DNA of 64,000 bases. Source: Pelagomonas calceolata (lineage: Eukaryota). The notes beneath the pieces are model-generated. The model was not told where the DNA came from and did not search any database. It saw only the letters and a program-made list of their open reading frames with translations. Positions 12,822 through 42,882 of the stretch are shown here, in pieces (the stretch's first letter is position 1; each line of letters opens with the position of its first letter). Made by a program: the position numbers and the translations under genes. The stretch lies in contig CAKKNE010000005.1 of assembly GCA_918797485.1 (NCBI GenBank), forward strand, positions 558,001-622,000. The letters run 5' to 3'.

Positions 12822-14461
12822 CTAGAACGCCTCGCCCCGGAAGAAGCGCGCGATGAAGGCTAGAGCGGCTTCCGGTTGGAACGTCGGGACCATGTGGCCC
12901 GCCAGGCGGATCGTGAGGAAGGATGCATCCGGGCCCTTCGATGGAAACGTCTTGCCCGGGACGCTGTACGTCGTCACGTAGCCGGCCGGCGCCTTCTGCG
13001 AGCCTCTCTCGGCGTACCACGGCTGCCACGGTGCTTTTTCCACCAACGAACCGGCAGTCTCCAGATTTGTGACGAGCTCCTCGTTTCCTTTGTAGGGGAC
13101 GCATAAATCGGCGTCGCCGTTGTAGATGAGCACGCGCATGTGCTGCACGAGGTGGGGCCAGAGGAGCTGCGACGCGGGGCCGGATTGCTTGTACTTGAAC
13201 CCGCTTCCCGGGCCCTTGAGGTGGAGCGCTGCCTGCACGTCCGCCCGCGTGAAGTAGCCGTCGAGGGCGCTGTCGGAGCTGCAGTCCCAGGGGTAGCCTC
13301 CATTGACATCAAAAGCCGCTTCGAACGCGGCGTCGAGCTCCAAGCGACTCAGGTGCATGCGGCCGCGGTGGAACGCCCGCACGGCGCGCTGCGAGACGTG
13401 GGGATTCGTCGCGTGCCAGGCGTCGGCGAGCGGGCCTGTGTGGAAATCAAATTTCAGGCGCGCCACGCCATCGACGCGACTGTGCCCATTACTACACCTG
13501 AAAAAATCGAACCCACGGTTGATTTTCCACACAGCAAGGGACAGTCGTCGTAGATGTCGTAGATGTTGAACGGCCCCACAGCGTCCTCGGCTTGATCTAA
13601 CAACGTATTGCAGGCCGCCGACGCCCCGGCCACGGGTAACGAGTCGTCGTCGTCGTCGCCCTCCGCAATGGCGTCCCAGTCGCAGGTGGCCTGGATCTTG
13701 GTGTAGAGCTTGTCGGGAAGCATCCCCTTGCCGTAATATATGTCTATGTCGTTGCGCTCGGCGTTCGGCCCGTTGCACTGGACGCTAGTTTGGGTGCCGC
13801 CCCAACAACCATTTCCCACAGCTAATCCCGTGATCTTGAAACTATATGAAGACTGCAGCACGTGGTAGGCGATGTTCGGCACGTACTGGCCGGCGTAGCT
13901 CTCGCCCGTCAGATACAACTCACTGGACTTGTACTCGGGGAACTTCTCGAGGAAGGCCTCGATCGTGTGGGCGTAGGCCACCGCTTGAGTGACATCCGTC
14001 CACTTGCAGGCGTCCTGTTTCTTCCCGTCAATGAAACACGTCGAGTAGCCCGTCTGGGCGCCCGCGATCGTGGAGCCGGCCGGGCTCTCGAGGTACAACA
14101 TGTGCGCCGCCTGGTTCCAGGCGTTCTTCTCGTTGTAGACCGGGCCCTGGGCCATCAACTGGAACGGGCCCATCTCCGTCCAGGCCCCAAACACGGCCGA
14201 GCCGCCGGGCCCGCCTTGATGCCAGAGCGCGAGCGGGCAGTCCTTCGCACGGCAGGTGTGGAGCTCGTAGTGGATCGAGAGCGAATCGTAGCCCGTCGAG
14301 GCTTTTGGCACGTCGACGTCGAGGTAGCCGCTGTAGACGTCGAAGCCGAGGCCCTGCTGGAATTGCTCTTCGAAGCCCGGGATCGACGTGACGCGGTCGT
14401 CTTCTTTTGTTGCGGCCCAGGCAGTGCTCAGTGCCAGCAGAAGGGCGGCGGCGCGCGCCAT
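12822..14461 (-). CDS. Secreted serine carboxypeptidase S10 (exons 14461-13543, 13435-12822)
   Basis: WHQGGPGGS, GESYAG, LIYNGDADLCVP, AGHMVP, signal peptide. Confidence 0.92.
13436..13542 (-). mobile_element. Introner element (intron = 8-bp TSD + 99-bp TIR element)
   Basis: Sense strand: gtcccttg + ctgtgtggaaaatcaa...ttgatttccacacag | gcccgctc. Splicing restores DDCPLADAW. Confidence 0.85.
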
Positions 14462-14714
14462 CGTTGACCGCGCAGCGAGCAGAGATCAGTGAGTGTGTTT
14501 CAGGCACGTGCGTTGCACAAGTCAAGCGCTGCGGATTGTCTCGCGGCGCCAGCACCGTATTTCAGGCTGTGGCACAGGAGAGCAGCGCGAGGCCTCCCAA
14601 GCAAAAAAGCTACGCGACGCCTCCGGCAACGCAAAGGCTTGGTCAAGCAGACCGCCTGGGGTGCGCAGCGATCCGCAAGAGCAATAATTTGTCACCGCGG
14701 ACGCACAGCGCACG

Positions 14715-15503
14715 ATGCGACAAGCCCGGAGAGCTGTAGCAGCCCTCACCCGGCGCCAGCCGGCGCGCCCGCTCTTCACCGATCGCAAGTCGCTCTACCG
14801 GGGCCACCTGCCCACGAACCCGCTCCAGAAGCTCGCGGCGACGGCCATCTCCGCGGCGAAAGCGCTGAAAGACCCTCGGCGCGCCGACATGGTGGGAGTG
14901 TTGGGCGAGGCGACGGGGCGCGTTGCGCTCGAGAAGATCCGGAGTGACCTGAAGACGACGCGGGAAGGGAGGTTGATTCTTTCTGAGAGACCCGTGGTCG
15001 ACTCCACCACCATTAATGGCGACGAATTGCGGCAATTAGATGAAAACACCTTCGGCCACGCCTACGGGCGGTTCCTGGAGAGGTATGGTTTTGATCCTGA
15101 TGACAGAACTCCGGTAGCGTTGGTCGACGACGAGGAGCTCGCTTATGTGTTGCTGAGGTACAGGCAAGTGCACGATTTCTGGCACGTGCTCTTTGGCCTG
15201 CCGCCCACCGTGCATGGGGAGTTGGTCCTGAAGTGGTTCGAGCTCGTGCATACCGGTTTACCTGTGGCGGCGTTCTCGGCGCTGTTCGGGCCTTTGCGCC
15301 TGTCCTCGAAGCAACGAAGGCGGCTATACGATGCACACGTCCCCTGGGCTACCCGTCAAGGTCGGGCGTGCACGCAGTCGTTGTTAGCTGTCTACTACGA
15401 GAAATGTTTTGATGAGGACATGGATTTGTTAAGGAAGCGGCTCGGCGTGACCGTGGCGCCGCCGCTCGGGACGTCGTCGCCCAAGTCGGCGTCGTCGGCG
15501 TAA
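14715..15503 (+). CDS. COQ4: Ubiquinone biosynthesis protein COQ4
   Basis: DPRRADMV..LGE, RYRQVHDFWHVL, GELVLKWFE. Confidence 0.93.
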   Translation: MRQARRAVAALTRRQPARPLFTDRKSLYRGHLPTNPLQKLAATAISAAKALKDPRRADMVGVLGEATGRVALEKIRSDLKTTREGRLILSERPVVDSTTINGDELRQLDENTFGHAYGRFLERYGFDPDDRTPVALVDDEELAYVLLRYRQVHDFWHVLFGLPPTVHGELVLKWFELVHTGLPVAAFSALFGPLRLSSKQRRRLYDAHVPWATRQGRACTQSLLAVYYEKCFDEDMDLLRKRLGVTVAPPLGTSSPKSASSA

Positions 15504-15580
15504 GGAATGTGTGTGTACCTTTTGATAGGCGGGCAGTCGCTCATTCCCCCGGGTACTAGTCTATCCGGGTCACAAAACAC

Positions 15581-16310
15581 CTAACAACCCGCCAGCCCCC
15601 GCGTCTCGGCAACCGCGCGCCGCGCCAACGCCACAAGCGTCGTCCCATACCTCACGACGCGCGGCGGCGCCGTCGGATAGTTCGGATCATCGTCATAGCG
15701 GTCCATGTCTAAACCGCGCACGTTCTCCTGGACGTAGGCGTACACCCTACCTTTTTCGACGACGAGCCCGTCAAAGGGCTGGTGGAACGTGCGGCCCGCG
15801 CCGGCGTTCCCCGCATGTGTTACATCCAGAAATTTCGAGAAGTGCACGCCGTCGCACGAGAACGCCGCCACGATCGCATGCCGACCAGGTGATGACAGCG
15901 GGAAGAGGCCCAGCAGGTAACCGGCCACAGCGTTGACGGCGCCAAAATACAAGTTTTCAAATGAACGACCACCAACAAAACCCTCGACCTCGATGAGGCG
16001 GAAGGGGCCCCATCCTTTTGTACCGGGGTCGCCTCGATGCAAGGCCACCTGGACGTGCCTCCCACCAAACCGGCCCCGTTTATTGGACACACCATTCGCG
16101 TTCGCGCGGGCGTAGAGCAAATAGGCGCCGTCTCCTCTTCTCGCGACGGAGAATCTTCCATCAAACTCGCAGCGCGGCGCGTGCGTCTTTCTTCGCGTCG
16201 TCTCGCTTTCGCTTTCGAGTCGCTGGCGGATCGGACAGGCAGTGCATGCACGTCCGCGGCCTCGAGGTCTTCGGGACGATCCTGCCGCCGTGGCGGCTCT
16301 GACTCGGTCT
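15581..16310 (-). pseudogene. Gene fragment or unresolved 5' end, unknown family
   Basis: Open frame CEFDGRFSV...YLLYARAN...VAGYLLGLFP with no ATG before an upstream in-frame TGA near 16312. Confidence 0.4.
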
Positions 16311-16352
16311 CACGCCGTCCGTTGGGTAAGGATTACTAGGAGCCGGCCAGAG

Positions 16353-16374
16353 CTAGCGGCTTGTAAGACACTAG
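16353..16374 (-). promoter_or_regulatory. Conserved CTAG promoter motif
   Basis: Reverse complement ctagtgtcttacaagccgctag. Confidence 0.65.
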
Positions 16375-16557
16375 CAAGCCAAGCCAGCAAGCCAGCAAAA
16401 AAACCGCATAAGCTCTCGAATTACCGCGCTAGACCTCGCTCTAGGCGTAAACGCTGACGACTTATTCCAGCACGCCTTGAATTTCGTAGCAAAATCCATC
16501 GCTGCGGCGAGCAGCACGCACTACATTGCCATTGGTGCTGGACAGCACACTCGCAAT

Positions 16558-17947
16558 ATGGCTGAGAGCACCCCAATCACGGAGAGCACCACCACGCCAG
16601 ACGACGAGACAGCCAACCCGCTACAGATTGAAAGTGTAGACGAAGAGTCGCGCGCCTCAGAGGACACGGCCGGGTCGCTGCTCGAAGCCGCGCAGGGCCG
16701 GCCCCTGAGGCTGCCGGTACGGGCGGGCGCACACCGACAGACTGCGAGGGCGCCGTACTGGTTCTGGCTCCTCGGCTTATTGAATAACGCGAGTTATGTC
16801 ATTATGATCGCGTCCGCGAAATCGATCGACGCCGGCGGCGTCGCGGTTGTGTACCTCGTGGCCATCGGGCCGGGTTTAGCCGTGAAGGCGTCCGCGCCGT
16901 ACTGGTTCGATCTCGTTCGATACGAGAAGCGGTTGTTGGTGGCGGCTCTGAGCATGGTCGGCGGCTTCCTCCTCGCCGGTTTGGGTGCGCGGAGGCCCCT
17001 GCAGTTACTAGGAGTGGCGCTGACGTCGTTCCAGTCGGCGCTCGGCGAAGCCACTCTATTAGCTTTGGCGGCGCGCCACGACGAAGGCTGCGTGAGCGCG
17101 TGGTCGTCGGGAACGGGCTTCGCGGGAATTGTGGGCTACGGCTGGGTCTGGTTATTTACAAGGGCGCTGCGCTTCTCGATGGCGGCGTGTCAATCAGTGG
17201 CCGCGCTGTCGTTGCCGCTGTTGTATGTCTTGGCTTCCAGACGAGTTACGGGCGCCGACGAGATCCGGCCGAAGCGGCTCGGCTCGTTCTGGGAGCGGAC
17301 GAGGTTTGGGTTAAAACTCTGGCCGACGACGGGGGCCCTGTTCCTCGTCTACTTCTCGGAGTACGCGCTGCAGTCCGGCGTGTGGGCGTCGATGGGCGTG
17401 CCTCAACCGACGAAGAAGCATAGGCAGGATTTCTACCTGTACGCGAATTGGTTATATCAAGTTGGGGTTTTGGTGTCGCGGAGCTCGGGGCCTCTCTTCC
17501 CGACGCCGCCGTCCAATGCGTGGCTCTGGGCCGCGAGCGGCCTGCAGGCCGTGTTTCTCTGCCTCTTCGCCGTCGATGCAGCAACAAGGTACTGGTACGC
17601 GTCGTCGATTCTCGTGATGTGCGTGCTGGTCGGGCTGCTCGGAGGCGGTGCGGACCCGTGTGGAAATCAAGGTTCACGGAAGCCCCACGCCATCGCCGCG
17701 ACGGCGTGGCGCTGGCTCCGACTCACTGGTCGATGCTCGCACAGGGGTCTACGTCCACGGGTTTCGGCGCTTATCTGTAGGACACGAGCCGGAGCTGGCG
17801 ATGCCCGTGGGCGCGCTGGCCGCGGATGCCGGAATTGTATTAGCCAACGTCATGGGGTTGTTCCTCCAGGCGTGCCTCTACGAGGTGAACGGGATCGACG
17901 GCGCGGCCGTGCCCTGGCGGTTGCCGGGCTGCCGCGAGCGGTGGTAA
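16558..17947 (+). CDS. CLN3: Battenin/CLN3 lysosomal membrane protein (exons 16558-17647, 17745-17947)
   Basis: FWLLGLLNNASYVIMIASA, WSSGTGFAG, YQVGVLVSRSS, GLLGG|GVYV. Confidence 0.9.
17648..17744 (+). mobile_element. Introner-derived intron in CLN3
   Basis: gtgcggac + ccgtgtggaaatcaa...cgcacag | gggtctac; contains cgccatcgccgcgac. Confidence 0.75.
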
Positions 17948-18027
17948 TTGTATGTTCTGTGACATTTACTAGACCCTCCCCACGCCATCGCCGCAAAGTG
18001 CATACATAAACTTACACGAAGGGAGAA

Positions 18028-18781
18028 TCAGACGACCTCGGCTAGCGCCAAATCCGCCAAGCCCGCGGCGTCAACATCCTTCGAGGCGACGCGGTAGAGG
18101 GTCGCAGGCACCGGGCGCCGGCGCTGCGACGCGTAGAGCAACCCGAGCACGAAGCCGACGCCCATGCCCCCGGCCATGACGACGGCCGCGCCGGCGAGGA
18201 GGCACGGCAGGACGTCGTCGCGCTCCTCGACGACGTAGGTCTCCCTCTCGGTCTGAGGCTCGGGCGCATCGCGCGACTCGCGCCACGTCGCCGTCATACC
18301 CTGGGCAAGACGCAGAAAGTACGTGTCGCCGCGCGCGACCTTGTACTCGAGGTCCGGGACGCGGAGTACCGCTGCCGGCGGCGCGTCGTCGACGGCGGCC
18401 CGCTCGGTCTCGCCGCCGACGAGCCCCTTGACGAACTTGAAGAGGCCGCCGAGGCCGAACTCGTCGCCAAACTCGTCGTAGTCCTCAGCGGCCGACTCGG
18501 CGGGCGCCGCCGCGACTTTTTTGGCCAGGTAGGCCGCCTCCAGGGCATTGTACTGGGCCTCCCAGTCGCCGGCCGCGGGCGCCGCGGGTGCCGCGACGGC
18601 GACGCGCTCCTCGACCGGCGCCTCGGCGGCCGCGGGCTCCTTGGGCGCCTCGGCCTTCGACGGCCGCGGCCGCGGCGCGCTGGTCGCGCTCGAGGTCGAC
18701 GGGCGCCGCGGCGGCCTGATCGGGCGCCGCGACCGCGAGAGCGGCCACGCCCGCGAGGGCTATCATTAAGAGGCGCGACAT
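18028..18781 (-). pseudogene. Signal peptide + C-terminal TM protein with an apparent frameshift near 18655-18660
   Basis: MSRLLMIALAG...AAAAVE lies in one frame; KAEAPKE...YNALEAAY...LLAGAAVVMAGGMGVGFVLGLLY lies in another. Confidence 0.55.
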
Positions 18782-19182
18782 TATCTTCCGGGCCGCGCCC
18801 GCGGGTCAATTCAGCAAAAAACTCACTTTGGCTCTGAGAGGGGTCAAGCTCTCTGTGATCGGCGCCGGACAGCGCGCTCGCTTGCTTCGTGTCACTGTCC
18901 GGTCTGAAAGTATACTCTAAAATCCTCAAGTTGTCTCTGGCCTCGCGGAGTGGACAGAGCGAGGCGTTTTTTCTCGCCCGCAATGCCGTGCGAGGCTCTT
19001 GAAAAATCGAGCCGCACGACGCCTCCCGCAGGCCCCCATCGACTCCCCCAGAGCTCGAAAGCCGGAAAATGCGAGACGCGGGTCACGCGGCCGCGGACGA
19101 CCCCCACCACGCCATCGCCGCAATAATGTACCGCTAGCGGTACATTAGTCCGCAACGTACGGCAAACACACCCTTACTCCCA

Positions 19183-19814
19183 CTAGATCGGCTGCGGCCC
19201 GAGCAAGGCCGGCCCGAGCGGCGGCTGCGCCGGAGCGGCGGGCTCCTCGGTTGCGGCCGCCGCGGCCTGGGCAGCAACAACCTTCGCGCGCTTCGCTCTT
19301 TTAACTTTGTTCTCTCCTCTTCTTTTCTCCACACAAGTCGCCAGGAACGCTTCGAGGGGAGCGGCCTGGCGGTCGAAGCCGAGGCGCACCACGGCATCAA
19401 CCACATCGCGTCCGGTCATAATCCTCCTACCTGCGTGTGTCAAAAGCGTGATGGCACGCCGTCGACGCGACTCGTGTCCATCAGAGAAGGCGATGGGTGG
19501 TCTCTGGTCCAAATTTGGGCCGATTCGGACGCCGACGCACTACCCGCGGCGGCGCAGGCGTCGGAAGCTTCCGAGGCGACAAACGCGACAAACTCCGACG
19601 CGCAGTCTTGGGCCGCTTCCCGCGCGTCTCTCCCGATCTTCGCCTCGGGCGGGATCGCGGCCCTCATCACAGACGCTACGGTACCGACCGGCAGCAAGCG
19701 GTCAAGCTCGTCGTCGAAGAGGGTCTGGCCGTCCTCCGCCGTCTCCGGTTGGGTCGACTGGGGCGGCTTCTTCTTCGGGGGCTGTTGTGGCGGGGGCGGC
19801 GGCGGGGCCTCCAT
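19183..19814 (-). CDS. Histone-fold protein, NF-YB/Dr1 family (exons 19814-19544, 19430-19183)
   Basis: DRLLPVGTV..VMR, AKIGRDARE..QDCASEFVAFVASEA, then RRIMTGRDVV...LGF after splicing. Confidence 0.85.
19431..19543 (-). other. GT-AG intron, introner-related
   Basis: g|gtagtgcg...acacgcag|gtaggagg (partial TSD); shares a block with the SMU1 intron. Confidence 0.75.
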
Positions 19815-20393
19815 TTGGTGTTCGGCTGGTGCGCGGCGGCGGGCGTCCGGGGCAGCCGATGTTATGTCGTGGCCGGGGCGTCCTTGGGACGGCGGCAGCG
19901 GGGCGGCGGCGCGTCGGGGGGCCGGCGCGCGGGGGCCCAATAGCGAGGCGACGCCGCCTGCTCCAGATTTGGATGGCCGGCTAGTGGCGGAGTGCGCGGC
20001 CGCGGACCGCTCCCCGGAGTGGTGCCTCCGGGGCGCCCACGCCTGGCGTGGTCGCTGCGGGCGGGCGAGGCCGCGGCCATACGCGGCCGCGCGGCCATAC
20101 GCGGCCGCGCCGCTGCACCAAGACACAGACCGCCCCGAGGGATCTTCTAGGGGCTAGAGCCGTCGTTTTACGCGTGTTTTTCGGATTTCAATCGTCGTTC
20201 CGAGTACGTTTCGAACGAGTTCAGCGGCGTTTTTTTTACCCGGTCATCGACGCTCTGACCCTGTTTGCTCAGCGCAAACGTAATCGCAAACAAAACTGAG
20301 GCTGTGACAAGCCCCAAACTATCCGAGCTACCGATCGCTGGCAAGAATTGGAGAAAGAACGGCCCAATACAAAGCGTGTGTGCTCTGAGCAGC

Positions 20394-20831
20394 ATGCACC
20401 GACCAAAGCGGCGCGCCACCGCCCTCGTAACACTGACACTGCTGTCCCACGCGACGCCCGCAGCCGCATTAGCGCTGCGGACGAACTTCGTCGCGCGCCT
20501 AGCGGCGCCGCTCGCGCCGTTAACAACAAAGGACATGTGGATGGGCGCCCGCGCCTCAACGCAACCACCACCAGAAGCGCCGCTCGACGCCGAGGCCATC
20601 GAGGCCGCCCGCCTGCGCGCGTCGGGCCACGCGCACCTCCACAACACGATCGCGAGCGTCGCGCGCGCGACGACGCGGCGGCTCGACGGAGTGAAAGCGC
20701 CGCTGACCGTTGTGGGCGACGCGTACAAGAACAACGTCCTCCGCTTCAGGAAGCTCTGGCGCCGCGACCCGGCGGCGCCGGCGCTGTGCCTCGACGACCC
20801 GCAGGCGCTCCTCGTCATCCGGCGGCCGTGA
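20394..20831 (+). CDS. Hypothetical protein with a leader peptide
   Basis: ORF with a hydrophobic N-terminus followed by an AT-rich 3' region. Confidence 0.45.
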   Translation: MHRPKRRATALVTLTLLSHATPAAALALRTNFVARLAAPLAPLTTKDMWMGARASTQPPPEAPLDAEAIEAARLRASGHAHLHNTIASVARATTRRLDGVKAPLTVVGDAYKNNVLRFRKLWRRDPAAPALCLDDPQALLVIRRP

Positions 20832-20941
20832 TTGTTCAAAGACCCAAGCAAGCTGTACATTGTCAAGAACGAAGTCTCCCTGTCAATATATAAATAGAGT
20901 TTTCTGTTATTACACAACACACTGCGGGCGCGTCGATGGCG

Positions 20942-21496
20942 TCATGAGTGGCCGAAAGCTTTCAGCGTCCGGTTCCACACCGCGCTCACCAGCGCCTCGC
21001 GCCGCCGATCCGGCGGCCGCCACGGTTCGACGCCGCCGCAGGGGGCATGATCAACGCCGCGAGGCGTCACCACGGCGTCGCCGGGCGCGCGCGCGAACCA
21101 CGTCATGTAGGCCTCCCACGGGAGCTGACATTTGCCTAGCAGGCGCGTCGCGACGAAGTGCGTCAACGCCGCGAGCCGATTACCACTGCAGACCGCGAGC
21201 TCGTCGCCGCGCCGCCGCGCGTGCCACCGACAGCTTGCCACGGCCGCGCAGTGCAGCGTCCAGGGCGTCGCCGCGTTGATGTCGACGTCTTGTGATGCGC
21301 AAGCTCCCAGGTAACCCGTGGCCCACTTCGCACCAATCGTCGCGTTGACGGCGACCCAGCAGCCGTCGCCTCGCGGCGCTTCGAGCTGCGGGATCTCATC
21401 GCCCGGCTCGACGCAAACGGTGGCGTCCCAGGACGCGCGGAGGAGCTGGGCCGCGATGGCCGCGAGCGCTGCGAGCGCGGCGAGTCGTTGGAGCAT
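20942..21496 (-). CDS. Hypothetical secreted or membrane protein
   Basis: MLQRLAALAALAAIAAQLL leader; Cys/Trp-rich body. Confidence 0.5.
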   Translation of the reverse strand: MLQRLAALAALAAIAAQLLRASWDATVCVEPGDEIPQLEAPRGDGCWVAVNATIGAKWATGYLGACASQDVDINAATPWTLHCAAVASCRWHARRRGDELAVCSGNRLAALTHFVATRLLGKCQLPWEAYMTWFARAPGDAVVTPRGVDHAPCGGVEPWRPPDRRREALVSAVWNRTLKAFGHS

Positions 21497-21677
21497 CGCT
21501 GCGGTGATGGCGTGATCGCGTGTCGGCAGTCGGTGGCCTCTGCTCGGAGGCTAGCGTCCGTAGCGGTGCTCGGTGCCGCGCGCGCAGCAACTAGGTCTGT
21601 TATGTCCACTGGCTGACAGCCGGGGAAGTTCACACAATGCGTTTTTGGCCGCGCGCGCGCGCGCGCTCCGACCGCAG

Positions 21678-21697
21678 CTAGCGTTGTAAGACACTAG
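21678..21697 (-). promoter_or_regulatory. Conserved CTAG promoter motif
   Basis: Reverse complement ctagtgtcttacaacgctag. Confidence 0.65.
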
Positions 21698-22001
21698 CAA
21701 GCAGGCAAGCAGGCGCGCGCAACTCGACGCGACGCAGCCTGCTGGGCACCAGCGGCCACATTGCTGCCTAGAGTTGCCCTACGGAGCAGCTTGTCCGAAA
21801 AAGAGCGCGCGCCAAGTGCTGCAGAGGCGAGTACAAAAGCCAGCACTGCTTGTGCGCCAGCGCCACGCTCCGCGAAGCGCGCACGTTGACGCCGCCGAGG
21901 CGCGCTAGTAGTCGACGTCACACTTTTCTTGACGACGCTGCGAGCGGCGACGCGAGATCGAGCAGTGCGTCTCGACCGGGCGATCACCGCCGCCGCGAAC
22001 G

Positions 22002-22211
22002 ATGGCCTCGGACGGCAACTGGGTCTCCGCGCCCGCGAAGCGACGAGGAGTCGTAGATTACGTGAAGCTCAAATACTACCACTGGTGCCTGTGGACGGGC
22101 ATTTATATGCTCGACACGCGGGAACGGGCAGCTTTAAATAGCATCGTGCTGGTCCTGCTCGCGCTGCTCGCGCGGTACGTGCACCACCTCTTTTTTCTGG
22201 GCGAGCTCTGA
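22002..22211 (+). CDS. Serine palmitoyltransferase small subunit-like
   Basis: YVKLKYYHWCLWTGIYMLDTRERAALNSI plus a TM helix. Confidence 0.75.
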   Translation: MASDGNWVSAPAKRRGVVDYVKLKYYHWCLWTGIYMLDTRERAALNSIVLVLLALLARYVHHLFFLGEL

Positions 22212-22383
22212 GGGCGCGCGCGTTTTTGCGCGGCGCCGTCGTCGTCGTCGTCGCAGCGCCGCGCTCGGTTCCTCGACGATTGTTTCTGAAGCTGCAGGTT
22301 AACATGTCCCGTCGACTTGTGGGTAACAACTACTAGTATAGTTCAAGTTAGTACTAGTAGGTGCCGCGGAGTTGGCTGACATA

Positions 22384-22530
22384 CTACGAATTACTAAGTC
22401 GTTCCCGAGCACTTTCCAGCGCGCGCTGGGCACCAGCCGTCGTCGGATGGGAGTCGCCAAAGACGCGTCGACACCGCTGCTCGACGTCCTCGAGGATCGC
22501 CACAGCTTCGGTATATTTTCCCTCAATTTG
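22384..22530 (-). pseudogene. C-terminal TPR-repeat fragment
   Basis: YTEAVAILEDVEQRCRRVFGDSHPTT...ALESARERL*; no 5' part. Confidence 0.55.
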
Positions 22531-22537
22531 GAGGACT

Positions 22538-22668
22538 ACGCGGCCGTCCTGGCTCCGTCGAGCGGCGAGGAACCGACATCGCCACGCCATCGAGCAGGCG
22601 TCGCGTCGAGGCGTGGAGGTCGACGCGTCGATTCAGGACGAAAGCGCCGTAAATTGATATCCACACAG
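22538..22668 (+). mobile_element. Truncated introner (right TIR only), followed by orphan exon 22669-22904
   Basis: cgccatcgag core; ends aaattgatatccacacag; no left ctgtgtgg TIR. Left boundary approximate. Confidence 0.6.
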
Positions 22669-22913
22669 GCGACGACATGTGCCGCGACGACTGCCGCACG
22701 GTCGTGGCGCCCGCGTTCGCGGCCAAGAATTTCCGGCATCTCGCGGGGACCAAGGCCAAGGCGCGCTGGAACGCCACGACCGCGGACGCGCCGACAGAGC
22801 CGACGGCGACGCACGGCGCCGCGGCGGCGAAATGGGACCCGCGGCGGGTCGGCTACTACCGCGCCCGCTTCCAGGAGGAGACGGCGTGCCTGTCGCGAGG
22901 GTAAAACAGTTCA

Positions 22914-25142: not shown

Positions 25143-25229
25143 CGTTGACGGCGTACGGTCCACGGCACGCGCCGATGGGCTGCGTTTTCGGCCCGAGACA
25201 AGGACCAACGATTGCAAAAAATAATCGAG

Positions 25230-25251
25230 CTAGCGTGTATAGACACACTTG
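25230..25251 (-). promoter_or_regulatory. CTAG promoter motif (degenerate)
   Basis: Reverse complement caagtgtgtctatacacgctag between divergent genes. Confidence 0.4.
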
Positions 25252-25451
25252 GAATCCGTAAACTGATGATAAAAAGCTGCCAATCTCTGCACCAAAGGCA
25301 TAAATCAGCCAACCGAGGAACTTGGACAACCCCAGGGACTCACCGGCGCAGCCAGTAAAATCTCCTGCAACGGCGTTAGCTACCAACATAAAAATCGAAG
25401 TCCGCAGCTCGAGCAGAGGGCATAGAGACGCTATCGACGCGAGCCGTAGAG

Positions 25452-26711: not shown

Positions 26712-26745
26712 GCGCGATTTTGAAACTAGGTCGTCACCGTGACGG

Positions 26746-27639
26746 TCACGGTCCGCCGGCGAGTGCTCTAGTACTACTACGGATGTACAGACGGGTCTGA
26801 GTCGCGTCGATGGCGTTATGCCCGACGAGTTCGCTCAGAGAATCGCTCTCGCGCGCCTCGAAAGCTCCAAGTTCGACATCTGCTTCGACGCCGCGACGAC
26901 GCGACCGTGACACGGCGTCGGCACCGCTCCAACGCCGTCGACGCGAAGAGACGGGGAACACTACTTACTTCTCCCCCTTCTCCTCGGGGTTGAGCTTTCG
27001 CCGGAACGTGAACGCCCAGCCCGCCGCGGTGTCGCGCTCCTGATTGGTAACGACGGAGAAATCCAGCTGCCCGACCAGAGGACAGACCGTGATGACGTAG
27101 CTCCGGTAGTGCTTTTTTTCTTCAATCGGATTGCCAAATAAAGATAATTTCTTGAGCTTTGGCAGTTCGCCCAATCTTTTCACCTGCTTCAGATCAGAAA
27201 TTCTGTTCGCTTGTAGATTCAAAACTTGGAGCGACGGCATGCACTTGAAGCAGTCGCCAAACACTCTGATGTTATTGAAGGACAGGTCGATCCACCGGAT
27301 CATCGACAGATCGGCTACCACATGAGACAGTGCCATTTCCAAAGATGGCGGCGGTCCCAGATCTACTCCTTGCTCATCGACGACGTTCGCACCCTCTCCA
27401 CACAACTCCACTATACTATTGTTGTTCAGTCTTATGGAGGAGTGCTTGAGCTTGCGTGGACCCGGTTCTTGGGGCGCGTTCGCGCCGGCCGGCGGGTGGC
27501 ACAAAAACACTGCTTTTTCAACATCAACTAACGACTCCATCTCCATGAAGCTCAGGTTCATCTGGTAGTACTTGCTTTCTTTGCGGCTGGGCTTGATCAG
27601 GTGCCATCCAGACTTGTCGATCTCGCCGCGCACGCCCAT
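26746..27639 (-). CDS. LRRC51-like leucine-rich repeat protein (stop at 26965 if unspliced; probable intron 26777-26968)
   Basis: WIDLSFNNI, LNLQANRISDL, LSLFGNPIEE..HYRSYVI, LDFSVVT. Confidence 0.8.
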
Positions 27640-30584: not shown

Positions 30585-30590
30585 CACATG

Positions 30591-32252: not shown

Positions 32253-32963
32253 CGGTCACTGGTGCGCCGGCGCCGGGAGCGATGCGACGGTCGGCGCGCA
32301 CTTGTCGGCGCAGCCCGGCGAGCGCTGCCGGTCGGCCTTCCGCGTCGACGACGTTGGCCGTGGTCGGCCGACCTCCTGCGCAGCGGGAGGCTGGCGCAAC
32401 GCAGTGCTCAAGCCTTGTGCTGAGTTTCCAGAGATCTTAACCAATGCGTTATGATCGCTGACACACACACACACCGATGACAGGCTCCAATGCCCAAAAA
32501 AAGTTAATAGCCAAAAAGGGCCAAAAAACAAAAAAACAAAAAAACAACATACCGGGTTTTGATTGAACAGAAAGAGCCCTAGCTGCGCGACGGAAGCAGC
32601 ACAAGACACAGTATACACAGTATTAACAACAACCGAGGACGTGTGTGCTGCCGGCGCACCGGCCGTACCGCGAGCGCGGGCCGGCCTACTAACCTATGTT
32701 TCTCCGTACCGCGTGCCTTCCGCCGCCGCGCGGGGAAGAGTGGGGCTTATTTTCCTCCGAGCCGCACTTGACGCGCGACGGACGCCCGGTTCGCGACGCG
32801 CGTGCGTTTTTTTCCAAAATACATATATACTATCTAGAAGAAAGCTACTGTGGACTTCGCACGACTGCTGCGCCACCGCGGATTTTTTGGATTCGTGATG
32901 TCAAAATGTCAAATGATGATAACAAAGATGCGCGCAGCGCGCTAACAGAGGCGACGAGTTCTT

Positions 32964-35900
32964 TTGAAGATGCTGCGTGCCCTTGTTAGCGCTGTGTTGT
33001 CCGTGACCAGCGCGCTGCCGCTGCGGGCCCCCGCGCGCGGCCCCATTCTGGGCAGCTGCCTGAAACCTTGGAAGGGCTGCCCCGAGGGCGGCTCCCTGAG
33101 CGGCTCCCGGCTCGGTTTCGCTGGTTTCTCCGAGGTCATGGCCATGTACGACGGCAGCAAGTCCGACAAAAGCGGCAGCACGTGTGCGCCGCATGGCGAG
33201 AACGGCCTCGACCGCGCCGCCCCCAAGGCCCTGGCGACGAGCCCCGCCGCGACGGCGCTGCGCCAGCTCTACAAGAACCACGGGGCGGACGGCAGCACGT
33301 CCGACAAAAGCGGCAGCACGTGTGCGCCGCACGGCGAGAACGGCCTCGACCGCGCCGCCCCCAAGGCCCTGGCGACGAGCCCCGCCGCGACGGCGCTGCG
33401 CCAGCTCTACAACAACTACGGCGCGGACGGCCTCTACGCCGACGCGTTCGACTCCGAGACTATAAAAGGCGCGGCGACGACCGAGCTCGACCCGAACAAG
33501 TACCAGGCGGGCGGGGTGCACGCGCTCCACGCCGTCGAGCAGCCTGTTTCTGGCACCATGATGCCGTTTGCGGCCCCGGGCGCGACCAATGGAGGCGGCA
33601 GCGCGAACGAGCTGCAAACAGGCATCGACGTCTTGGACGTCGCGTCCGCCGAGCTGGCGCCTACGCCCGGCACCACGATGCAGTTCAAGGGCGGCGTCGA
33701 CGAAGAAGAAGCGGCCCAGAGCTACCTTGGGCGGACTTCCTGGTGCCTCTTCCAGGTACTCGCTTCGGTGGTTCCGCGGCGCAGTAGCTCGGCGATGGGA
33801 GCGGCCTGGCGCTCGTCCATCGTCGGCTACCTGCTTATTTGGGGGGACGTTACCCATGTGGCGGCGGAGACTTCGGTCCGCGGCGGCAGCGGCCGCAGCG
33901 ACGACAACACCAAGTCCAAAACCAAGACCAATAACGCACCGCGCGCGCCGGCGGGAGGCCTCGCGCAGCGGCGCGCGCTCACGGGCTATGTGATGGACAA
34001 CGATAGCATTAGAACGGCGGTGACGACTTGGTTTGACGACCAGTCCGCCGCCGAGGCGGTCTACGGGCACATTTCGACTTGGGAGACTTCCGGGGTGACG
34101 GACATGTCGGGGTTGTTTTGCGTGCGGCAGGATATGGACGACGACTGGTACAACGATTGCATCAATGCAGATGCGTCCTTCAACGAGGACATCGGCGCGT
34201 GGGACACCTCCGGCGTCACGACGATGCACATGATGTTCGCCCACGCCTACGCCTTCGACCAGGACATTAGCTCGTGGGACACCTCTGGGGTCACGAGGAT
34301 GGACTACATGTTCTATGAAGCCTTGGCCTTCGACCAGGACATCGGCGATTGGGTGGTCCACAGTGTCATGAGCATGGAAGGGATGTTTCAGGAAGCCTGG
34401 TCCTTCGACCAGGACCTCGGCTGGTGCGTGGACGCGTACCTCGACGAGGCGTTCTCCGAGACCCGGTGCGCGTCGACGTCGTGCGGCGTCAAGGTGGGAC
34501 AATTTGTAACTGCGAGCGGCAGCTGCGAGTCTACCTACGCGCCGACTGCGTACTACGACGGCGTGCATCACACAGACGTAAGCATCCGCACGGCCGTGAC
34601 GGCTTGGTTGAGCGACGCGACGGCCGCCGAGGCGACGTACGGCCACATTTCCACGTGGGAGACTGGGGGGGTGACGGACATGTCGTATTTGTTTTGCGTG
34701 CGGCAGAGTTGGATGGACAGCGATTCACATTACGACGATTGCGTCTTATCAACGTCGTCCTTCAACGAGGACATCGGCGCGTGGGACACCTCCGGCGTCA
34801 AAAGGATGGACTACATGTTCTTCTTAGCCTCGGCGTTCGACCAACCGCTGAACGACTGGCGGGTTGACAAGGTCACGGATATGAGCGGGATGTTCGCCGG
34901 CGCCTCGGTCTTCGACCAGGACATCAGTGCATGGGACACCTCGGGCGTCAGGAGCATGGGGGACATGTTCGGCGGCGCCTACGCCTTCAACCAGGACCTC
35001 GGCTGGTGCGTGGACGACGACGTTGACTTTGCGTATTCCGATGGGGAAGGCTCCACCTTTCAAGCTGCTTTCTCTTATACCCAGTGCGAGTTGACGTATT
35101 GTGGCGTCGTGCAAATGGACAACTGCCCGATCACGGGCTACGTCATGGACGACGATAGCATTAGAACGGCCGTCGCGGCATGGGCCTCGGACGCTGCGAC
35201 CGCCGAGGCGACGTACGGCCACATCTCGACGTGGGCGACTGGGGGGGTGACGGACATGTCGCACTTGTTTTGCGTGCGGCAGGATTATATGGACGATCCT
35301 GATGAGGCGGAATATTATGAATCCTGTGTGCTTCCGGCATCTGCTGCGTCCTTCAACGAGGACATCGGCGCGTGGGACACCTCTGGCGTAACGAGGATGT
35401 ACGGGATGTTCGCCTTCGCCTCGGCGTTCAACCGAGACATTGGTGGTTGGGCGGTTCACAGCGTCACAACGATGGAGGAGATGTTCGAAAGCGCCTTGGC
35501 CTTCGACCAGGACCTCGGCTGGTGCGTGGACGACGACGTGGACCTTCACCTAGCGTTTCGCTACACCCCGTGCGCGTCGACGTTGTGCGGTGTCTCGTGG
35601 GGCGGCTGCGACATCCCGAGCAATGGTAATGTCATGGCCAACGGGAAGATCAGAATTGCAGTTGCAGCGTGGCTCTCCGACGCCACGGCAGCCGAGGCGA
35701 CGTACGGCCACATCTCGACGTGGAGGACCGACAAGGTGACGGACACGTCAGGTTTGTTCAGAGAAAAGACCTCATTCAACGACGAAATCGGCGCGTGGGA
35801 CACCTCCGGCGTTACGAAGATGCACTGGATGTTCGACGAGGCCTGGGCGTTCAACCAACCAATTGGCAACTGGCGTGTCGACAACGTCATGGATATGAAC

Positions 35901-37028
35901 GGCATGTTCTTCCGCGCCTATGCCTTTAACCAAGACATCGGTGATTGGGCGGTCCAAAGCGTCAAGGACTTTACGGAAATGTTCGGCGGGGCCTCGTCTT
36001 TTAACCAATACATCGGTGATTGGGCGGTCCACAGCGTCACTGACATAAGCTACATGTTCGAGGGCGCCTCGGCCTTCGACCAGGACCTCGGCTGGTGCGT
36101 GGACAACGACGTGAGCCTGGAAGGCGCGTTCTCCGAGACCCAGTGCGAGTCGACGTCGTGCGGCATCGTGCAAATGGACAACTGCCCGATCACGGGCTAC
36201 CCGATCACGAGCTACGCCATGGACGACAGTAGCATTAGAACGGCGGTGACGACTTGGTTCTATGACCCGAGTGCTGCCGAGGCGACGTACGGCCACATTT
36301 CGACATGGGAGACATCGGGGGTGACGGACATGTCGCTTTTGTTCTACGACTCCAGTAGGAATATAGCCAGGCCCTTTAACGAGGACATCGGCGCGTGGGA
36401 CACTTCCGGTGTTACGACGATGAGGAAGATGTTCGCTGCCGCCAGGGCCTTCGACCAGGACATCAGCGCCTGGAGCGTCGACAACGTCAGGGACATGAAC
36501 CAGATGTTCCGCGAAGCCTCGTCTTTTAACCAGGACCTCGGCTGGTGCGTGGACGACGGCGTGATAGGTAACTCGGCGTTCTCTGGCAGCGGGTGCTGCT
36601 CAACGTCCTGCGGCGTCGCTCAAAAGGACGAAACCGGTGACTGCCAAATCAAAAGAATATACAATCGAATAAAGGGAATTTTAAACGATTGTGACGACGA
36701 CGATGGGGCCACGGAACTTGTCATGTCAACGGGACTCGCTGCGATTGGAATCACGTTCACGGGGATCACCATCGCGGCGATCGCGAATGCGCTCCAGGAA
36801 CAATGCGCCCTGGGCCCCACGATCGTCTACGAGGCCGGCACGACGCACCCCTACTACATCACCCCCAACCTCTGCACCATCGGGACCAAGACCTTTTCGT
36901 CGGACAAGACAGTTCGCGACGCCTCGCCGCGCAAGGTCTGCCGCAAGTTCTGCGAGGCTGCATCGGAGAAGGGCAAACTGGCGCTCAAGCACGTCCAGGG
37001 CCTGACGTGCTACTGCAAGCGGGGGTAA
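32964..37028 (+). CDS. DUF285/BspA-like repeat surface protein
   Basis: [16 protein letters not shown]..MF repeats in 5 modules; late TM segment; Cys-rich tail. True start uncertain. Confidence 0.85.
33151..33430 (+). repeat. 138-bp tandem duplication (2 near-identical copies, in frame)
   Basis: Copies start at 33151 and 33289. Confidence 0.9.
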
Positions 37029-37046
37029 CAAACACACTTATTAACA

Positions 37047-40000
37047 TCACTCGAGCTTCGTCGCGCACGCGCCTCCCACCGCATCCTTGAAGATAGATAA
37101 AGACTCCTCGGCGCAGAGCACGGCCCAGCGCGCCGGCTTGCCCCCTTGATCTTGGCCGAAGACCACGAGGACGCGCGTCGACGCCTCCTCATCTAAATCC
37201 CGGCAGTCCGTGGGTGATGGTGCTGTCAGCCCCGCGTGGCCTAACAGTACCAGCACCTCGCGCGGGGCCCGCCCGCCATCCACGTCCTTCTCCGAGGACC
37301 ATCCAGCTAGACGCCGCCCGTGCAAGATCACATAACGATCCTGCCACTTGTCCTGGAGATGGATGCGACACCTAATTTCGCAGGACGGCGACCAGATGGC
37401 ATGCAGCTGCGCCCGTCTCCTCATCCGCTTCTCGTTCTCTATAAGTAACTGGGCGTGCTCCTTCGCGCGCACGTCGTAGCAGTCCCTCAGTGCCCTATCG
37501 TGGGGCACGCTCCTCACCGCATTGACGAGTCGCGTCGTCATCGGCGAGCCGTCGCCCGGTAGCAAGCGATAGAGGAACTCATACAAACCTCCCGCGAGGA
37601 TCAGGTATCTCGTCTGCACCCTCGCAAATAACACAACCCCAAAGCACGCGCATAGAAACAGAAACAGCGTCTTTTCCGGGTGCGTCCACGTCAGCAGGTT
37701 CTTAAACCCCTCGCCGAAGTCCAAAATCCTTCCTAGTAAGTTCTGGGCATAAACGGCATACTCGTTCGCCGTCACGACGGTGCTGAGGGGTTTGGTAGCT
37801 TCCCGCGCGTAGGCGCCGACGGACTGCGTCAGCGTGTGCGTATCTGTGGTCATGGGGTCGATCATGGCCTCGACGGCGCGGCACAATCTTTTTTCTTCAT
37901 TGTTCGGCTCACTGTCATCTCTCAAGACTAACTGTAGTCTCACGTGCACCGCGGGCTTCTCCTTACGCTTCTTCGGAACTTCCTCATCCACAATTTCGAG
38001 CTCGTGCCAGCCTCTTCTCTCTCGTTGCGGGCCCCGTTCGTCGCTGTCCACTAAATCACACAAAGGTATGACGACTTCTCCTATACACGAATCGGCCAAT
38101 CGTCCCGTCCGGAAGACCGCAACCCTCACACCGCCCTGCGCCTCGGACCAGGCCAGCATTTGTTCCGCGTCCATGGGCTGCGGCAGGGGGTAGACTAAAC
38201 ATCTGTCGATGGTCTGGGACGTGTCGTTCTTGCGCCAGCCCCGCCGTTCCCAGGGTTCGACGATACAAGGTGTTGCGTGGTCGTGATCCCCGAGCAAAGA
38301 TGATACTCGTCTGATCGAGGACCACCCGGCCTCCCGGTCGACCGTCGCCCCCAGCGACCCGTGCCACCTCGGATCTCTCCCTCGACACGTGCCCGTGTAT
38401 CCTAATAAAGTTTCGTGGTGCGTGATTTCTTCCTCTTCGACCTTGGTGGTCGTCGGTGACACCTGTGTGGAAATCAAAGTTGCACCTGACGCACCGGTTG
38501 GTTTCCACGCAGGGCGAGACGGGCAGCGGGGCGTCGTCCAGCATGATCGAGTCGCCCCGCGCCTTCGTACCTTGCGCCGCACCGGGCGTCGGCATGGCCT
38601 GGGCGTCGTCCAGCAGAGCGTCGAGCGACGTATCAACAGATAGCGCTTCCGCTATCCTAGGTGAGGCCGAGCCCGAGCGTGGTCGAGGCTTCTCTACAAC
38701 AGGTTCATCCAACAACGGTCTTCGAAACGTCGCCACGGCGTACACATCATCATCTTTCTCGAAACCGCGTCCAGCACACACCGCGATCTTCAGCCGTCCG
38801 CACGGCCGGAACCGCTGCGTCGCACCATTCAGCAACTCCGCGTCGGCCTTCTCGAACGCCTCATCTAAAAATGAAGCTCTAGGGTAGCCTCTCAGAAATC
38901 GTCTCCTGCCTAGCACGAGCAACCCGAGAGCTACCAATGTAACTGGAACGAGTCCGGCATACTCCGCATCTAAGAATAAACAAATGGAGACAAATACAAT
39001 AAACACGGAACCGGTCTGCAGCGGCCTTGTCCACCTCATAAATGCATCATAAGCGTCCATGAACGCGTAGATCGCGTGGACGCAATCGGTCGCGCGCCTT
39101 ATATGTTGCTTCGAGATCTCGATGGAGAACTGCTCTGGTTGCGGGGGGCGCTCTACGGATATCGGTGTCGGCGCCCACCACAGCTTGTCCCCAAACACCG
39201 TGAAGCGCGCCGACGGCCAATGCACGACCGCCGTCGGTAGGTTCGCTTTATCTCGCAGGTAGGAGTTGGCCGCGTCGTCAAAATAATAGGATGAGGGAGG
39301 TGATCCGTACCTCTTCGCGGATTCCGATTGCGTCAAGTAGGGTATCTGCGTGCCTGGGGGTAAGTTAGCTTTTATAATTGATTGGGCCTGCTTCAGGTAG
39401 TCCAAAGCTTTCTGATCGGCCTGCTCCTGTAGTAAGTCGAGCACGCCGAAGCGGTGACTCCCAACAACACTGTCACGAGCCGCGTCGACGAGTTCCACGC
39501 GAACTTCGGCCGCGAAGCTTTCGACGCAGAACCGCCACCGGACGTCGAAGTGCGGCTCCCTACTTTGGTAGACCGTATGCGTACGTCTATTAAAGCGGCC
39601 TCGTTTGGGCGGAGGCATGTCCCTCGAACCCGCCAGCACGACTCTGACATAGTAGTCTCCAGTGGTAGTGTCTTCTTCGTCACTCGTTTCCAGTAATTTG
39701 ACCGATGCCAGATGCAATTCTAATCTTCCAACACCTTCTTCGACATCATCGACAAACACAGCGTCGCCCGACGGGGACCTTTTCGCCCGCGGAGACCCTT
39801 GCACCAACGGCTCATCAAAGGAAGGTTGCGGCGTCTCGAGGGGAGGCGGCTTCTTCCCCACACAATCAAACACGGCGTGCGCTTTCAGCTGGCAGCCACC
39901 ATGCACGCTGAGCCCGCAGGCCTCACACCTAAACCCTTGATGCCGCAGTCCCATCATGAGTTTTTCGCATACCGCGCACCACTGCGGCGTGTTGTAGGAC

Positions 40001-40476
40001 TGCAATCGGAAGAGGTGCTGGTGGCGCACGTCCTCATTCAACACCAAGGACGGCGTCCGCGCGATAGCTGTCGGGGTCGTCGTGCCCGGGACGAATTTCG
40101 TTTGTAGGAGTACGGAGGTCTTCTCATTGAGTGAGATCCACATTTCATTCTCTTCGCCCGGGATGAGTAGGGGCTGGGCGTCGATTGTGGTCAAACCGAG
40201 ACAGCGCTCATAGACGAGTAACTCGCGACTCCTCAGATCAATTGATAATTGTGGCTGGGCCTCGTCGTGTGCCGCGAGATGCGGTAAGACTACGAGATTG
40301 GCGTCGGACAAGGCCCACTCCGCCGTGCCGTCGTCGTCGCACTGGGCCGTATCCGACGATTGCTCCTCCTTCCACGGGAGCAGTCGGAGTCGGACCGTTA
40401 GAGCGGCCGCGGGCGCCGCGTCTAGACCCTTGGCCTGCCGCACTCTAACTTGTAATAAGCCGGAGACCGAGGCCAT
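37047..40476 (-). CDS. Multiple-C2 + C1 transmembrane protein (MCTP-like) with a C-terminal PH-like domain (exons 40476-38521, 38462-37047)
   Basis: C2 strands; C1 HLF..WCAVCEK..GLRHQGFRCEACG..H..C; PRT-C-like NLLTWTHP plus TM. Confidence 0.8.
38463..38520 (-). mobile_element. Minimal introner (8-bp TSD + 50-bp TIR element)
   Basis: Sense strand: gtctcgcc + ctgcgtggaaaccaa...ttgatttccacacag | gtgtcacc. Splicing joins the ORFs as APLP|VSPTTTK. Confidence 0.88.
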
Positions 40477-40688
40477 TATTCCTTATGTTTATCTTCTTCG
40501 CGTGTGCGTGTACGTGCTGAACAGTGCGCTGCGGAGAGGCTGCTCGTCGTCGGCGCCACCGCTCGAACGAGTGGCGCGGGCGGCTGTGTGCGCCGACAGT
40601 GAGCACTGTACGCACACTGATGCGTCAAAACTCACGTCGCTCGTCCCCCTGTCGCGCCGAGCAGCTTTTTTTGCCGTCTGAGGCTGAG

Positions 40689-40710
40689 CTAGCGGCATGT
40701 AAGGCACTAG
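40689..40710 (-). promoter_or_regulatory. Conserved CTAG promoter motif
   Basis: Reverse complement ctagtgccttacatgccgctag(ctcagc), nearly identical to 1012-1039. Confidence 0.65.
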
Positions 40711-40991
40711 CGCGGTTTGACCAGGCGTCTTCCAGCACGCCCGAGCGCTCCTCCGGCACGGCGCGCACCCGTCGCCGCACGGAAGTGAGCGCTCCGCCGC
40801 CGCCCAAAACCCGTGTCCGGCAAGAGTTATTCGAAAAGCGGCCCGATAAATCGCCGCCGCAGAGCACGGGCGCGGGGAGCGCGGCTGCCCGACGACGTCC
40901 GGGACCCTATAGGCCCAACTCCACGGCGAGGAACAGCCCCCAGACGCCACCGCGGCCGGCGGGCCCAGCGCCCTGGGAGCGGGCAGCCACC

Positions 40992-42882
40992 ATGCCCTCC
41001 GAAGGCAAGGAGGACGACAAGCCCAAGAGCCGCCTGCGACCTAAAGTGGTTTTGTTGAATGCCTCCAAGCGCGAGGCCTTCTCGCCCAACAGCGGCTTCA
41101 AGCGGCTCTTCCGGCGATTACGATCGAGCAATTACAAGCCCGTAAATAATCGGGACGACATCACGGCCAAACTCCTGGAAGATGCGGACGTCTTAGTGAC
41201 CGCTTGTCCGAGAGAAAAGTTCACGGGTGAGGAAATTGAGTGCATCCAGGCCTGGTTGAAAAAAGGCGGTTCACTGTTCTGTTTATCGGCCGAAGGCGGC
41301 GAGGAGAAATATGGAGGGAACATGAACGACTTACTCAAGCCCTACGGCATGTCGTGTAGCAACGATAGTGTTTTGAGGACCGTGTACTACAAGTACCTTC
41401 ACCCAAAGGAGGTGTTCGTTTCGCACGGCGTCCTGCAGCCGTCTTTGGTGGCCAACAAACATCTGGTGATCTCTGGCAAGCGAAAGACGAAGCGGGAGCA
41501 GCTGAAGGGCGACGCACTGAAGGAGGCGACGGCGAACGGTGGCGGTCTCAGTTTCGTCTATCCCCGCGGCGCGACTTTAGGTATAAGAAGACCGGCCCGA
41601 GCCGTGTTATCTACCGGAGCCATCTCCTACCCGATCCACCGCACGGTCTGCGCGGCCTGGGAGGGCAAGACGGATAAAGATCTCCCTCCGAAGTCGCCCA
41701 AACCAAGGGTGGTTGCGATGGGTGCGGCAGAAATGTTTGCAGATGATTGGCTCGACAAGGAGGAGAATAATATTGTGATGGACTTGCTGTTCAAGTGGCT
41801 TTGCAGGGATGATGAGGCGCCTTCGCTCGTTGCGGCGGCGCCGTCTCAGACATCACGTCCAGTCAAAGACCGAGGCTTGACGAGGCATAGCTTCGATCCA
41901 GGGGCGGATGCGACCTTCGAGCTCGCGGAAGGCGAGCACCACCACGCGGAGGCGGACAAGGAGTACGCGCGCGTTCCAGACATAGAAGCCCTCGCCAGTC
42001 GTCTGCGAGCGTGCCTGCAGGAGGGCGAGGAGCTCCCGCGCAACTTCGCGAAGTTATTCAATGACGCCCTCTTCCGCTTCGACACGGACGCGATCCCGGA
42101 GGTCGTGGCCTTGTACGAATCTGTGTGGAAATCAACCAGTGAGTCTCGAGACTCATGTTTTCGGCTCAAACCTGGACACAATCTCCGAGGGATAGTTGAG
42201 ACCGTATCCAGAGAGTAGCACCTCACGCAAACCACGAGAGATTGAACTTTGCTGTCCTCGCAGGTACGAACAGCTTAATGTCAAACACGAGCCCCTGTCG
42301 CTCATACCGCCGACGTTCGAGTGCCCCCTGCCTCCGTTGTTGCCGGCGACGTTTCCCCCGGCGTTGCGGGAGCCGCCGCCGCCGCCGTTGGACCAGTTCG
42401 ACCTCGACGAGCACTTCGCCAGCAAACGCGAGCGGCTCGCGCAGTTGACGAACAAATGCTTACAAGGCAACGGTGTGGAAACAGATGATGATTTGGACTA
42501 CTACATCCGGGAGGCGTGCGACGTCGTCGGCGCGACGAAGGTTCTGGCGGACAAAACGGGCGACGGCGCGCCGCCGTCGGCCATGCGGGCTCTGGCCTTT
42601 GTGTTAGCTGAACTGGTGAACTTCAAGAAGGTCAACCCCGGCGAGAGCGAGGTCAACCACGAGCGGCGGGCGGGAGAAGGCGAGGAGCCGGGCGAGAACC
42701 TGTCGGCCGGAGCCATCCTCGCAAGTTCGGAGCCGATGAAGAAACGCACACAACTGAAACATTTAGATGGGGCGCCGGACGCGAAGTCCATGGCCCTGTC
42801 GCCGATCGCTGGTGGTGGTGAACCTAGCTTCCAGGCCGAGGCCAAGGGCGGTGACGGCGCGGAGGTGATGAGCTTCAAGTAG
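40992..42882 (+). CDS. IFT52: Intraflagellar transport protein 52 (exons 40992-42112, 42264-42882)
   Basis: NASKRE, PREKFT, RTVYYKYLHPKE, LYEQLNVKHEPLSLIPPTFECPLP, FDLDEHF. Confidence 0.95.
42113..42263 (+). mobile_element. Introner element in IFT52
   Basis: gtacgaat + ctgtgtggaaatcaa...ctcgcag | gtacgaac (TSD 7/8 identical). Confidence 0.88.

Follow-up and report, generated by a model that had tools for sequence, protein, structure and literature searches.

Pelagomonas calceolata is an abundant marine alga, among the ocean's most abundant eukaryotes, and has already been reported to carry introners, that is, introns made by transposable elements. Here we analyze four such introns in a 64,000-nucleotide stretch of its genome (assembly GCA_918797485.1, contig CAKKNE010000005.1, positions 558,001 to 622,000 of the forward strand), hereafter the window, to which all coordinates refer. 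Among the closest described systems are the introners of Aureococcus anophagefferens, for which Huff, Zilberman and Roy (2016) are said to have given a duplication length of 8 bp; insertion in nucleosome linkers is a further criterion of the Aureococcus type. In Aureococcus introners, the element brings one splice site and the duplication the other, and either orientation occurs (bioRxiv 10.1101/2020.10.14.339549, PMC10228655; here and below, statements on published work refer to the sections of each paper that were consulted). The Pelagomonas elements are alike in both respects, whereas Aureococcus is another genus, with only 52-58% identity in exon 1 of IFT52, and the Pelagomonas copies, compared with those of Aureococcus, span a wide range of length and decay. 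In classes 6, 8 and 10 of Polarella glacialis, an 8-nt duplication gives the 5' splice site and both orientations are found, and these 8-nt classes are likened to the Aureococcus introners (bioRxiv 10.1101/2020.10.14.339549). Pelagomonas shares both of these features, but Polarella is a dinoflagellate with a GH donor (including GA), whereas the Pelagomonas copies have only GT and GC.

For P. calceolata itself, Guerin et al. (2022, PMC9481584) reported 956 putative introners with GT/GC donors, an AG acceptor and a conserved terminal inverted repeat (TIR), and an intron length peak near 210 bp. The species (as judged by protein identity), the donors, the acceptor and the presence of a TIR are all alike here, so that the present family is very probably that of Guerin et al. 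or part of it. The consulted text of that paper on Pelagomonas introners mentions neither a target-site duplication nor the orientation of the elements, their decay or differences between alleles, and short decayed copies like our four might escape its 90% overlap rule. Gozashti et al. (2022, PMC9860276) also list the species as introner-bearing, with "?" for both target-site duplication and TIR in all four Pelagomonas families of Table S6. In the green alga Micromonas, which has an unrelated element, wild clones with 96-99% coding identity vary in the introners they carry (Simmons et al. 2015, PMC4540971); the polymorphism was seen there on DNA clones, whereas here it is read from protein records. 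Pelagophytes are not named in the consulted parts of PMC12130899 and PMC11282704, and a literature search, conducted mostly without subscription papers, found no work dedicated to the duplication or polymorphism of introners in Pelagomonas. Thus, the family is real, its mechanism is already described, in Aureococcus, and TIR introners are already on record for the species (PMC9481584), in agreement with the original prediction, made from the letters of the window alone, that the mechanism is known for pelagophyte introners. As mechanism, the present case adds little beyond a clean, RNA-confirmed example of a way of gaining introns that has been described before. It does add the 8-bp duplication, which is unstated for Pelagomonas in the consulted text of PMC9481584 and marked "?" in Table S6 of PMC9860276, and the lead of value is that wild relatives appear to carry many intron insertions that are not fixed.

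We conclude, with a probability of roughly 0.93, that the four introns are members of a single family of short TIR elements with 8-bp target-site duplications, likely a non-autonomous DNA transposon of the Aureococcus introner type, inserted in exons. The upstream 8-mer, starting with GT or GC, provides the first base of the intron, and the CAG of the terminal repeat provides its last bases. The four host genes are unrelated to one another, and the introns, their strands and the 8-mer pairs (intronic/exonic gtcccttg/gcccgctc, gtgcggac/gggtctac, gtctcgcc/gtgtcacc and gtacgaat/gtacgaac) lie where they were originally predicted:

13436..13542, minus strand: intron 1, serine carboxypeptidase gene; 107 nt, phase 1, intronic 8-mer plus 99-bp element; spliced reads
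13535..13542, minus strand: intronic duplication copy of element 1, GT start; encodes Cys-Pro-Leu, as the exon copy does
13428..13435, minus strand: exonic 8-mer of element 1 (duplication copy); 4/8 identity, each of the four differences silent
13436..13450, plus strand: TIR of element 1, family consensus; its minus-strand CAG is the acceptor of intron 1
13519..13534, minus strand: TIR at the other end of element 1, carrying one additional A
17648..17744, plus strand: intron 2, battenin/CLN3 gene; 97 nt, phase 1, 89-bp element, inverted, 3' TIR decayed; spliced reads
17648-17655, plus strand: intronic 8-mer of element 2
17745..17752, plus strand: exonic 8-mer of element 2 (duplication copy); 4/8, GG start, silent relative to GT at a Gly codon
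38463..38520, minus strand: intron 3, gene of a C1/C2-domain protein; 58 nt, phase 0, 50-bp element, both TIRs; spliced reads
38513-38520, minus strand: intronic 8-mer of element 3
38455..38462, minus strand: exonic 8-mer of element 3 (duplication copy); 6/8, the two differences silent
42113..42263, plus strand: intron 4, IFT52 gene; 151 nt, phase 2, 143-bp element, 3' TIR decayed; spliced reads
42113-42120, plus strand: intronic 8-mer of element 4
42264..42271, plus strand: exonic 8-mer of element 4 (duplication copy); 7/8

All four introns have GT..AG ends on the transcribed strand, and spliced RNA reads use the predicted ends in every case. Raw polyA reads across the joints number 14 (run X21) and 11 (X22) for intron 1, 13 and 11 (X21, X22) for intron 2, 8 (X21) and 5 (X23) for intron 3, and 269 and 169 for intron 4; the three raw runs come from a single sample, and each joint also occurs in a contig from one or more further samples (X10, X12 or X14, presumably RNA). 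Around introns 1 and 2, these counts refer to the strongest 15 of 26 joints. Splicing removes the element together with one copy of the 8-mer, so that protein length is retained. The spliced IFT52, battenin and carboxypeptidase products, which were compared with named records, are identical to the P. calceolata records P0090 (579/579 residues), P0425 and P0250, respectively, and the carboxypeptidase domain (Pfam PF00450) was matched on both exons flanking intron 1. Neither gain nor loss of residues was detected at the intron 4 junction in 80 of the 81 IFT52 homologues that cover it, bearing out the expectation that splicing restores the protein exactly, and the close carboxypeptidase and battenin records likewise cross their junctions without an indel.

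The 15-bp end motif has seven matches in the window at three or fewer mismatches compared with 0.54 expected by chance, and none of 100 shuffles reached seven. Two of the introns had been thought to keep both TIRs; in fact, a second TIR is recognizable in all four, decayed to about 10/15 in element 2 and about 11/15 in element 4 (counted by eye). Because the two ends differ within the common 15 bp, element 2 can be recognized as inverted, its orientation relative to the gene being opposite to that of the other three (3:1 in the window). Reads from many other loci, with varied loose ends, pile up on 13435-13480, which indicates that the family is present in many copies in the P. calceolata genome.

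The 8-mer pairs are present as predicted but the copies are not identical, matching at 4, 4, 6 and 7 of 8 positions in elements 1 to 4. On its own, the window therefore does not prove a duplication, and the proof is supplied by the family, as described below. The differences within the pairs have a pattern of their own: both 8-mers encode Cys-Pro-Leu in element 1 and Val-Ser in element 3, all six differences being silent; in element 2, the intron copy has drifted away from the conserved Gly-Val-Tyr that is retained in the exon copy; and, in element 4, the copies differ by a single base. Among 30 coding copies from metagenomes with 5-7/8 identity, 22 of 50 differences were silent compared with 30% expected if the frame did not matter (p=0.029). 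Both copies seem to change, mostly on the intron side, and the excess of silent differences lends this modest support. Identity of the duplication correlates with neither element length (p=0.30) nor TIR integrity (p=0.25) and, therefore, does not rank the copies by age.

The family was surveyed by scanning metagenome contigs with a 19-base end motif, which yielded 122 matches at no fewer than 120 loci. A second end and flanks were identified for 100 matches, the other 22, lacking a second end or a flank, being left uncounted, and after five candidates longer than 320 bp were dropped, 95 short copies remained. Mean flank identity in these copies peaks at a flank length of 8 bp, with 0.74, and is 0.21-0.32 for the remaining lengths between 2 and 13. 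The flanking 8-mers are identical in 28 of the 95 copies and match at 7 or more of 8 positions in 50, a level reached in 0.5% of shuffles, and all eight positions contribute (0.66-0.80 compared with 0.26-0.44 in shuffled pairs). GT or GC is found at one end in 87 of the 95 copies, against 31% expected, and none of the eight exceptions reaches 7/8. The search thus bears out an 8-bp duplication starting with GT or GC. The pairing rule itself demanded a TIR-like second end, and under this rule the TIR ends match at 15/15 in 53 copies and at 14/15 in 24; the outgoing strand carries CAG at both ends of the element.

We called coding copies with a codon model trained on the window genes and self-trained on the loci, with the orientation taken from the coding score alone. 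By this measure, 62 of the 95 copies are confidently located in coding sequence; the intronic copy starts with GT in 45 of these, with GC in 16 and otherwise in one (61/62 GT/GC), and the copies are distributed over both orientations (35:27) and all three phases (27, 10 and 25 for phases 0, 1 and 2). Copy length ranges from 53 to 300 bp (n=95), so the wide spread first noted for the window (50-143 bp) stands, as an outcome of ordinary decay and subfamily variety. The five candidates for long elements were rejected: L016, L075 and L064 contain separate short copies, L042 is probably a chance match within a long open reading frame (ORF), and the second end of L047 is weak. Two observations on individual loci can be added. 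L003 and L005 have a common left flank and end but different right flanks, which might be due to an assembly chimera or to recombination between copies, and the unrelated loci L033, L089 and L092 have one intronic 8-mer in common, where a chimera, target preference or an overwritten donor could be involved.

We envisage that a transposase acting in trans would cut the target with an 8-base stagger and that exon insertions would persist where the duplicated 8-mer begins with GT or GC on the sense strand. The two copies would later drift apart through silent changes in the exon copy and free changes in the intron copy, interiors would be deleted, the acceptor-side repeat would decay, and many insertions would be unfixed among wild relatives. 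A duplication of 8 bp is a criterion of the hAT superfamily and suggests a hAT mobilizer, although we do not file the family as hAT. Viral contigs contained no match to either end motif.

Whether wild relatives carry these introns was assessed at sites 1, 2 and 4 in environmental protein records with 84-99% identity, so that the allele state is read from proteins and not from DNA; for the larger clusters, the best 15 of 84, 19, 18, 24 and 17 members, respectively, were listed. Many of these records appear to come from gene calls that ignore introns, so that a filled allele continues into the translated TIR. At site 1, five of the 66 listed records read into the element, 15 run through unbroken and 21 run through but are broken or unspliced elsewhere (23 do not cover the site and two do not align). 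At site 2, three of the 59 are filled, four are empty-like and 19 are unbroken, with 33 not covering; at site 4, one of the 29 is filled (P0101, with a different interior), 23 are unbroken, two do not cover the site and three fragments were disregarded. The IFT52 records P0110, P0115 and P0116, classed as "empty-like" by the script, are such fragments. Element interiors differ among filled alleles of a single site. These records suggest that filled and empty alleles coexist at sites 1 and 2 and, more weakly, at site 4, and the introns appear to be absent from close relatives at the protein level. In the proposed comparison of orthologues, empty sites were implied by protein records, and none was found as DNA.

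Further sites seem to be filled in relatives and empty in the window. The clearest is in battenin:

17388..17395, plus strand: probable empty target site in battenin exon 1, with a GT-starting 8-mer, as judged from proteins

At the corresponding residue, 279, 23 of the 59 listed battenin records break, many of them into the translated TIR. Similarly, related carboxypeptidase records enter the same TIR at residues 189 and 288 (near 13895 and 13600, minus strand), where the window is empty. In addition, carboxypeptidase records P0119-P0299 break near residues 152, 219, 354, 387 and 410, where the window is intronless, without a TIR signature. Judged from the protein records, relatives have widely varying intron content in the carboxypeptidase gene, and which of the four introns are carried likely differs from one wild relative to another. 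We rate at somewhat better than even the chance that a large pool of unfixed, transposon-made introns exists, wild alleles of one gene being filled at differing sites (three family sites in the carboxypeptidase and two in battenin), with the diverging 8-mers of each pair as an age gauge. If so, the frequency of newborn introns, the selection on them and their loss could be measured directly from existing ocean metagenomes, and if the alleles hold on DNA, P. calceolata would be a good system for studying intron spread, persistence and loss in very large populations.

Other origins of the four introns have to be weighed against insertion of a TIR element with an 8-bp duplication. A repeat could have invaded or overwritten old intron positions, the likeness of the 8-mers then resulting from chance and splice-site consensus; the identity of only 4/8 in elements 1 and 2 and the decayed acceptor-side repeat of element 2 are compatible with such a history, but we consider it extremely improbable given that flank identity is raised at all eight positions and not at GT alone, that in elements 1 and 3 the intronic 8-mer codes for the residues of the exon, and that close relatives seem to be without the introns. 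Alternatively, whole introns with their own donor could spread via RNA, by reverse splicing, as proposed for fungal introner-like elements. The common 8-mer of L033, L089 and L092, of which the exon copy matches at only 5, 4 and 2 of 8 positions, could be explained in this way, although the interiors of these three copies differ in length (155, 76 and 85 bp). Another 8-mer is also found three times, in one case as an exact duplication, so the recurrence can be put down to target preference or to assembly chimeras. In most copies, the 8-mer is locus-specific and repeated downstream, and both orientations occur, which makes spread via RNA very unlikely. Insertion of a TIR element with an 8-bp duplication remains the preferred explanation, and the following observations weigh against it or some part of it. 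Shuffled flank pairs reach 4/8 or more in about 27% of cases and 7/8 or more in 0.5%, so that two of the four window pairs, those of elements 1 and 2, provide no evidence of duplication by identity alone; 22 of the 95 metagenome copies match at 4/8 or less, some looking chimeric or shifted by one base; with the 4/8 pairs included, the excess of silent differences weakens (23/58, p=0.067); and the metagenome copies may belong to species other than that of the window. An autonomous transposase with the same TIRs, which the original prediction proposed to look for, was not found among the 69 ORFs scanned (36 of 87 at long or unpaired loci and 33 of 51 in the window), and the listed rows of the P. 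calceolata annotation table include one Tc1-like transposase and no hAT. A DNA search of at least 120 metagenome loci and the window detected no empty site, and the tree of 51 battenin records is star-like, with the filled alleles ungrouped, so that gain cannot be told apart from precise loss at a later stage; such a tree fits recombining alleles.

Secondary to the origin of the introns is the question whether spliced transcripts, precise losses or fixed differences among cryptic species, and not insertions segregating within one species, lie behind the apparent empty alleles. The mixed origin of the protein records, with identities of 84-99%, and the battenin tree, which places no gains on single branches, would agree with these explanations. 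Against them stand records P0301 and P0436, in which the residue-279 battenin element is translated in frame and site 2 is nevertheless run straight through. Moreover, among records with an equal longest contig (14,346, 11,146, 38,640 and 100,682 bases), a gene that is whole is found together with an intron-broken neighbor, which, with the shared contig deduced from the equal size, points to intron-blind calls on DNA. Finally, one filled record is identical, in the aligned part, to three records that run through. We regard these explanations of the empty alleles as less likely than insertions segregating within one species.

The window contains one more, incomplete member of the family:

22534..22676, minus strand: fifth copy, truncated, with a GT-starting 8-mer and one TIR, the second TIR missing

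This copy is 91% identical over 137 nt to L086, a 200-bp member of the family. The frame around it is TPR-like and probably decayed, and was not shown to be restored by any acceptor within about 270 nt. Judging by the sequence, the copy may represent an insertion that failed, located in a pseudogene.

Several other introns and repeats in the window were noted. The RNA-confirmed 208-nt intron at 6804-7011 (plus strand), in a gene that by eye resembles a sugar transporter, contains the internal motif of the family without a TIR, and its flanks match at only 2/8. Another RNA-confirmed intron, of 113 nt at 19431-19543 (minus strand), is bounded by a duplication-like pair with 5/8 identity and has a 36-nt motif (92%) in common with a probable intron of a WD40 gene at about 3845-3945 (plus strand); these two introns possibly represent a second or older introner family. 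At 45904-45969, a 66-nt skip with non-canonical ends, seen in six reads of one run only, is probably an artefact. A repeat of 31-36 nt is located at or upstream of gene starts at 1009-1043, 40678-40713 and about 16350-16376, the first two copies being 94% identical, with many reads and contigs from elsewhere piling up on the third; it may be a promoter element or another small repeat. Among the neighboring genes, an ORF at 11653-12615 (plus strand) contains the EsV-1-7 cysteine motif, and 32946-37025 (plus strand), where paralogue reads pile up, encodes a long protein of DUF285 repeats.

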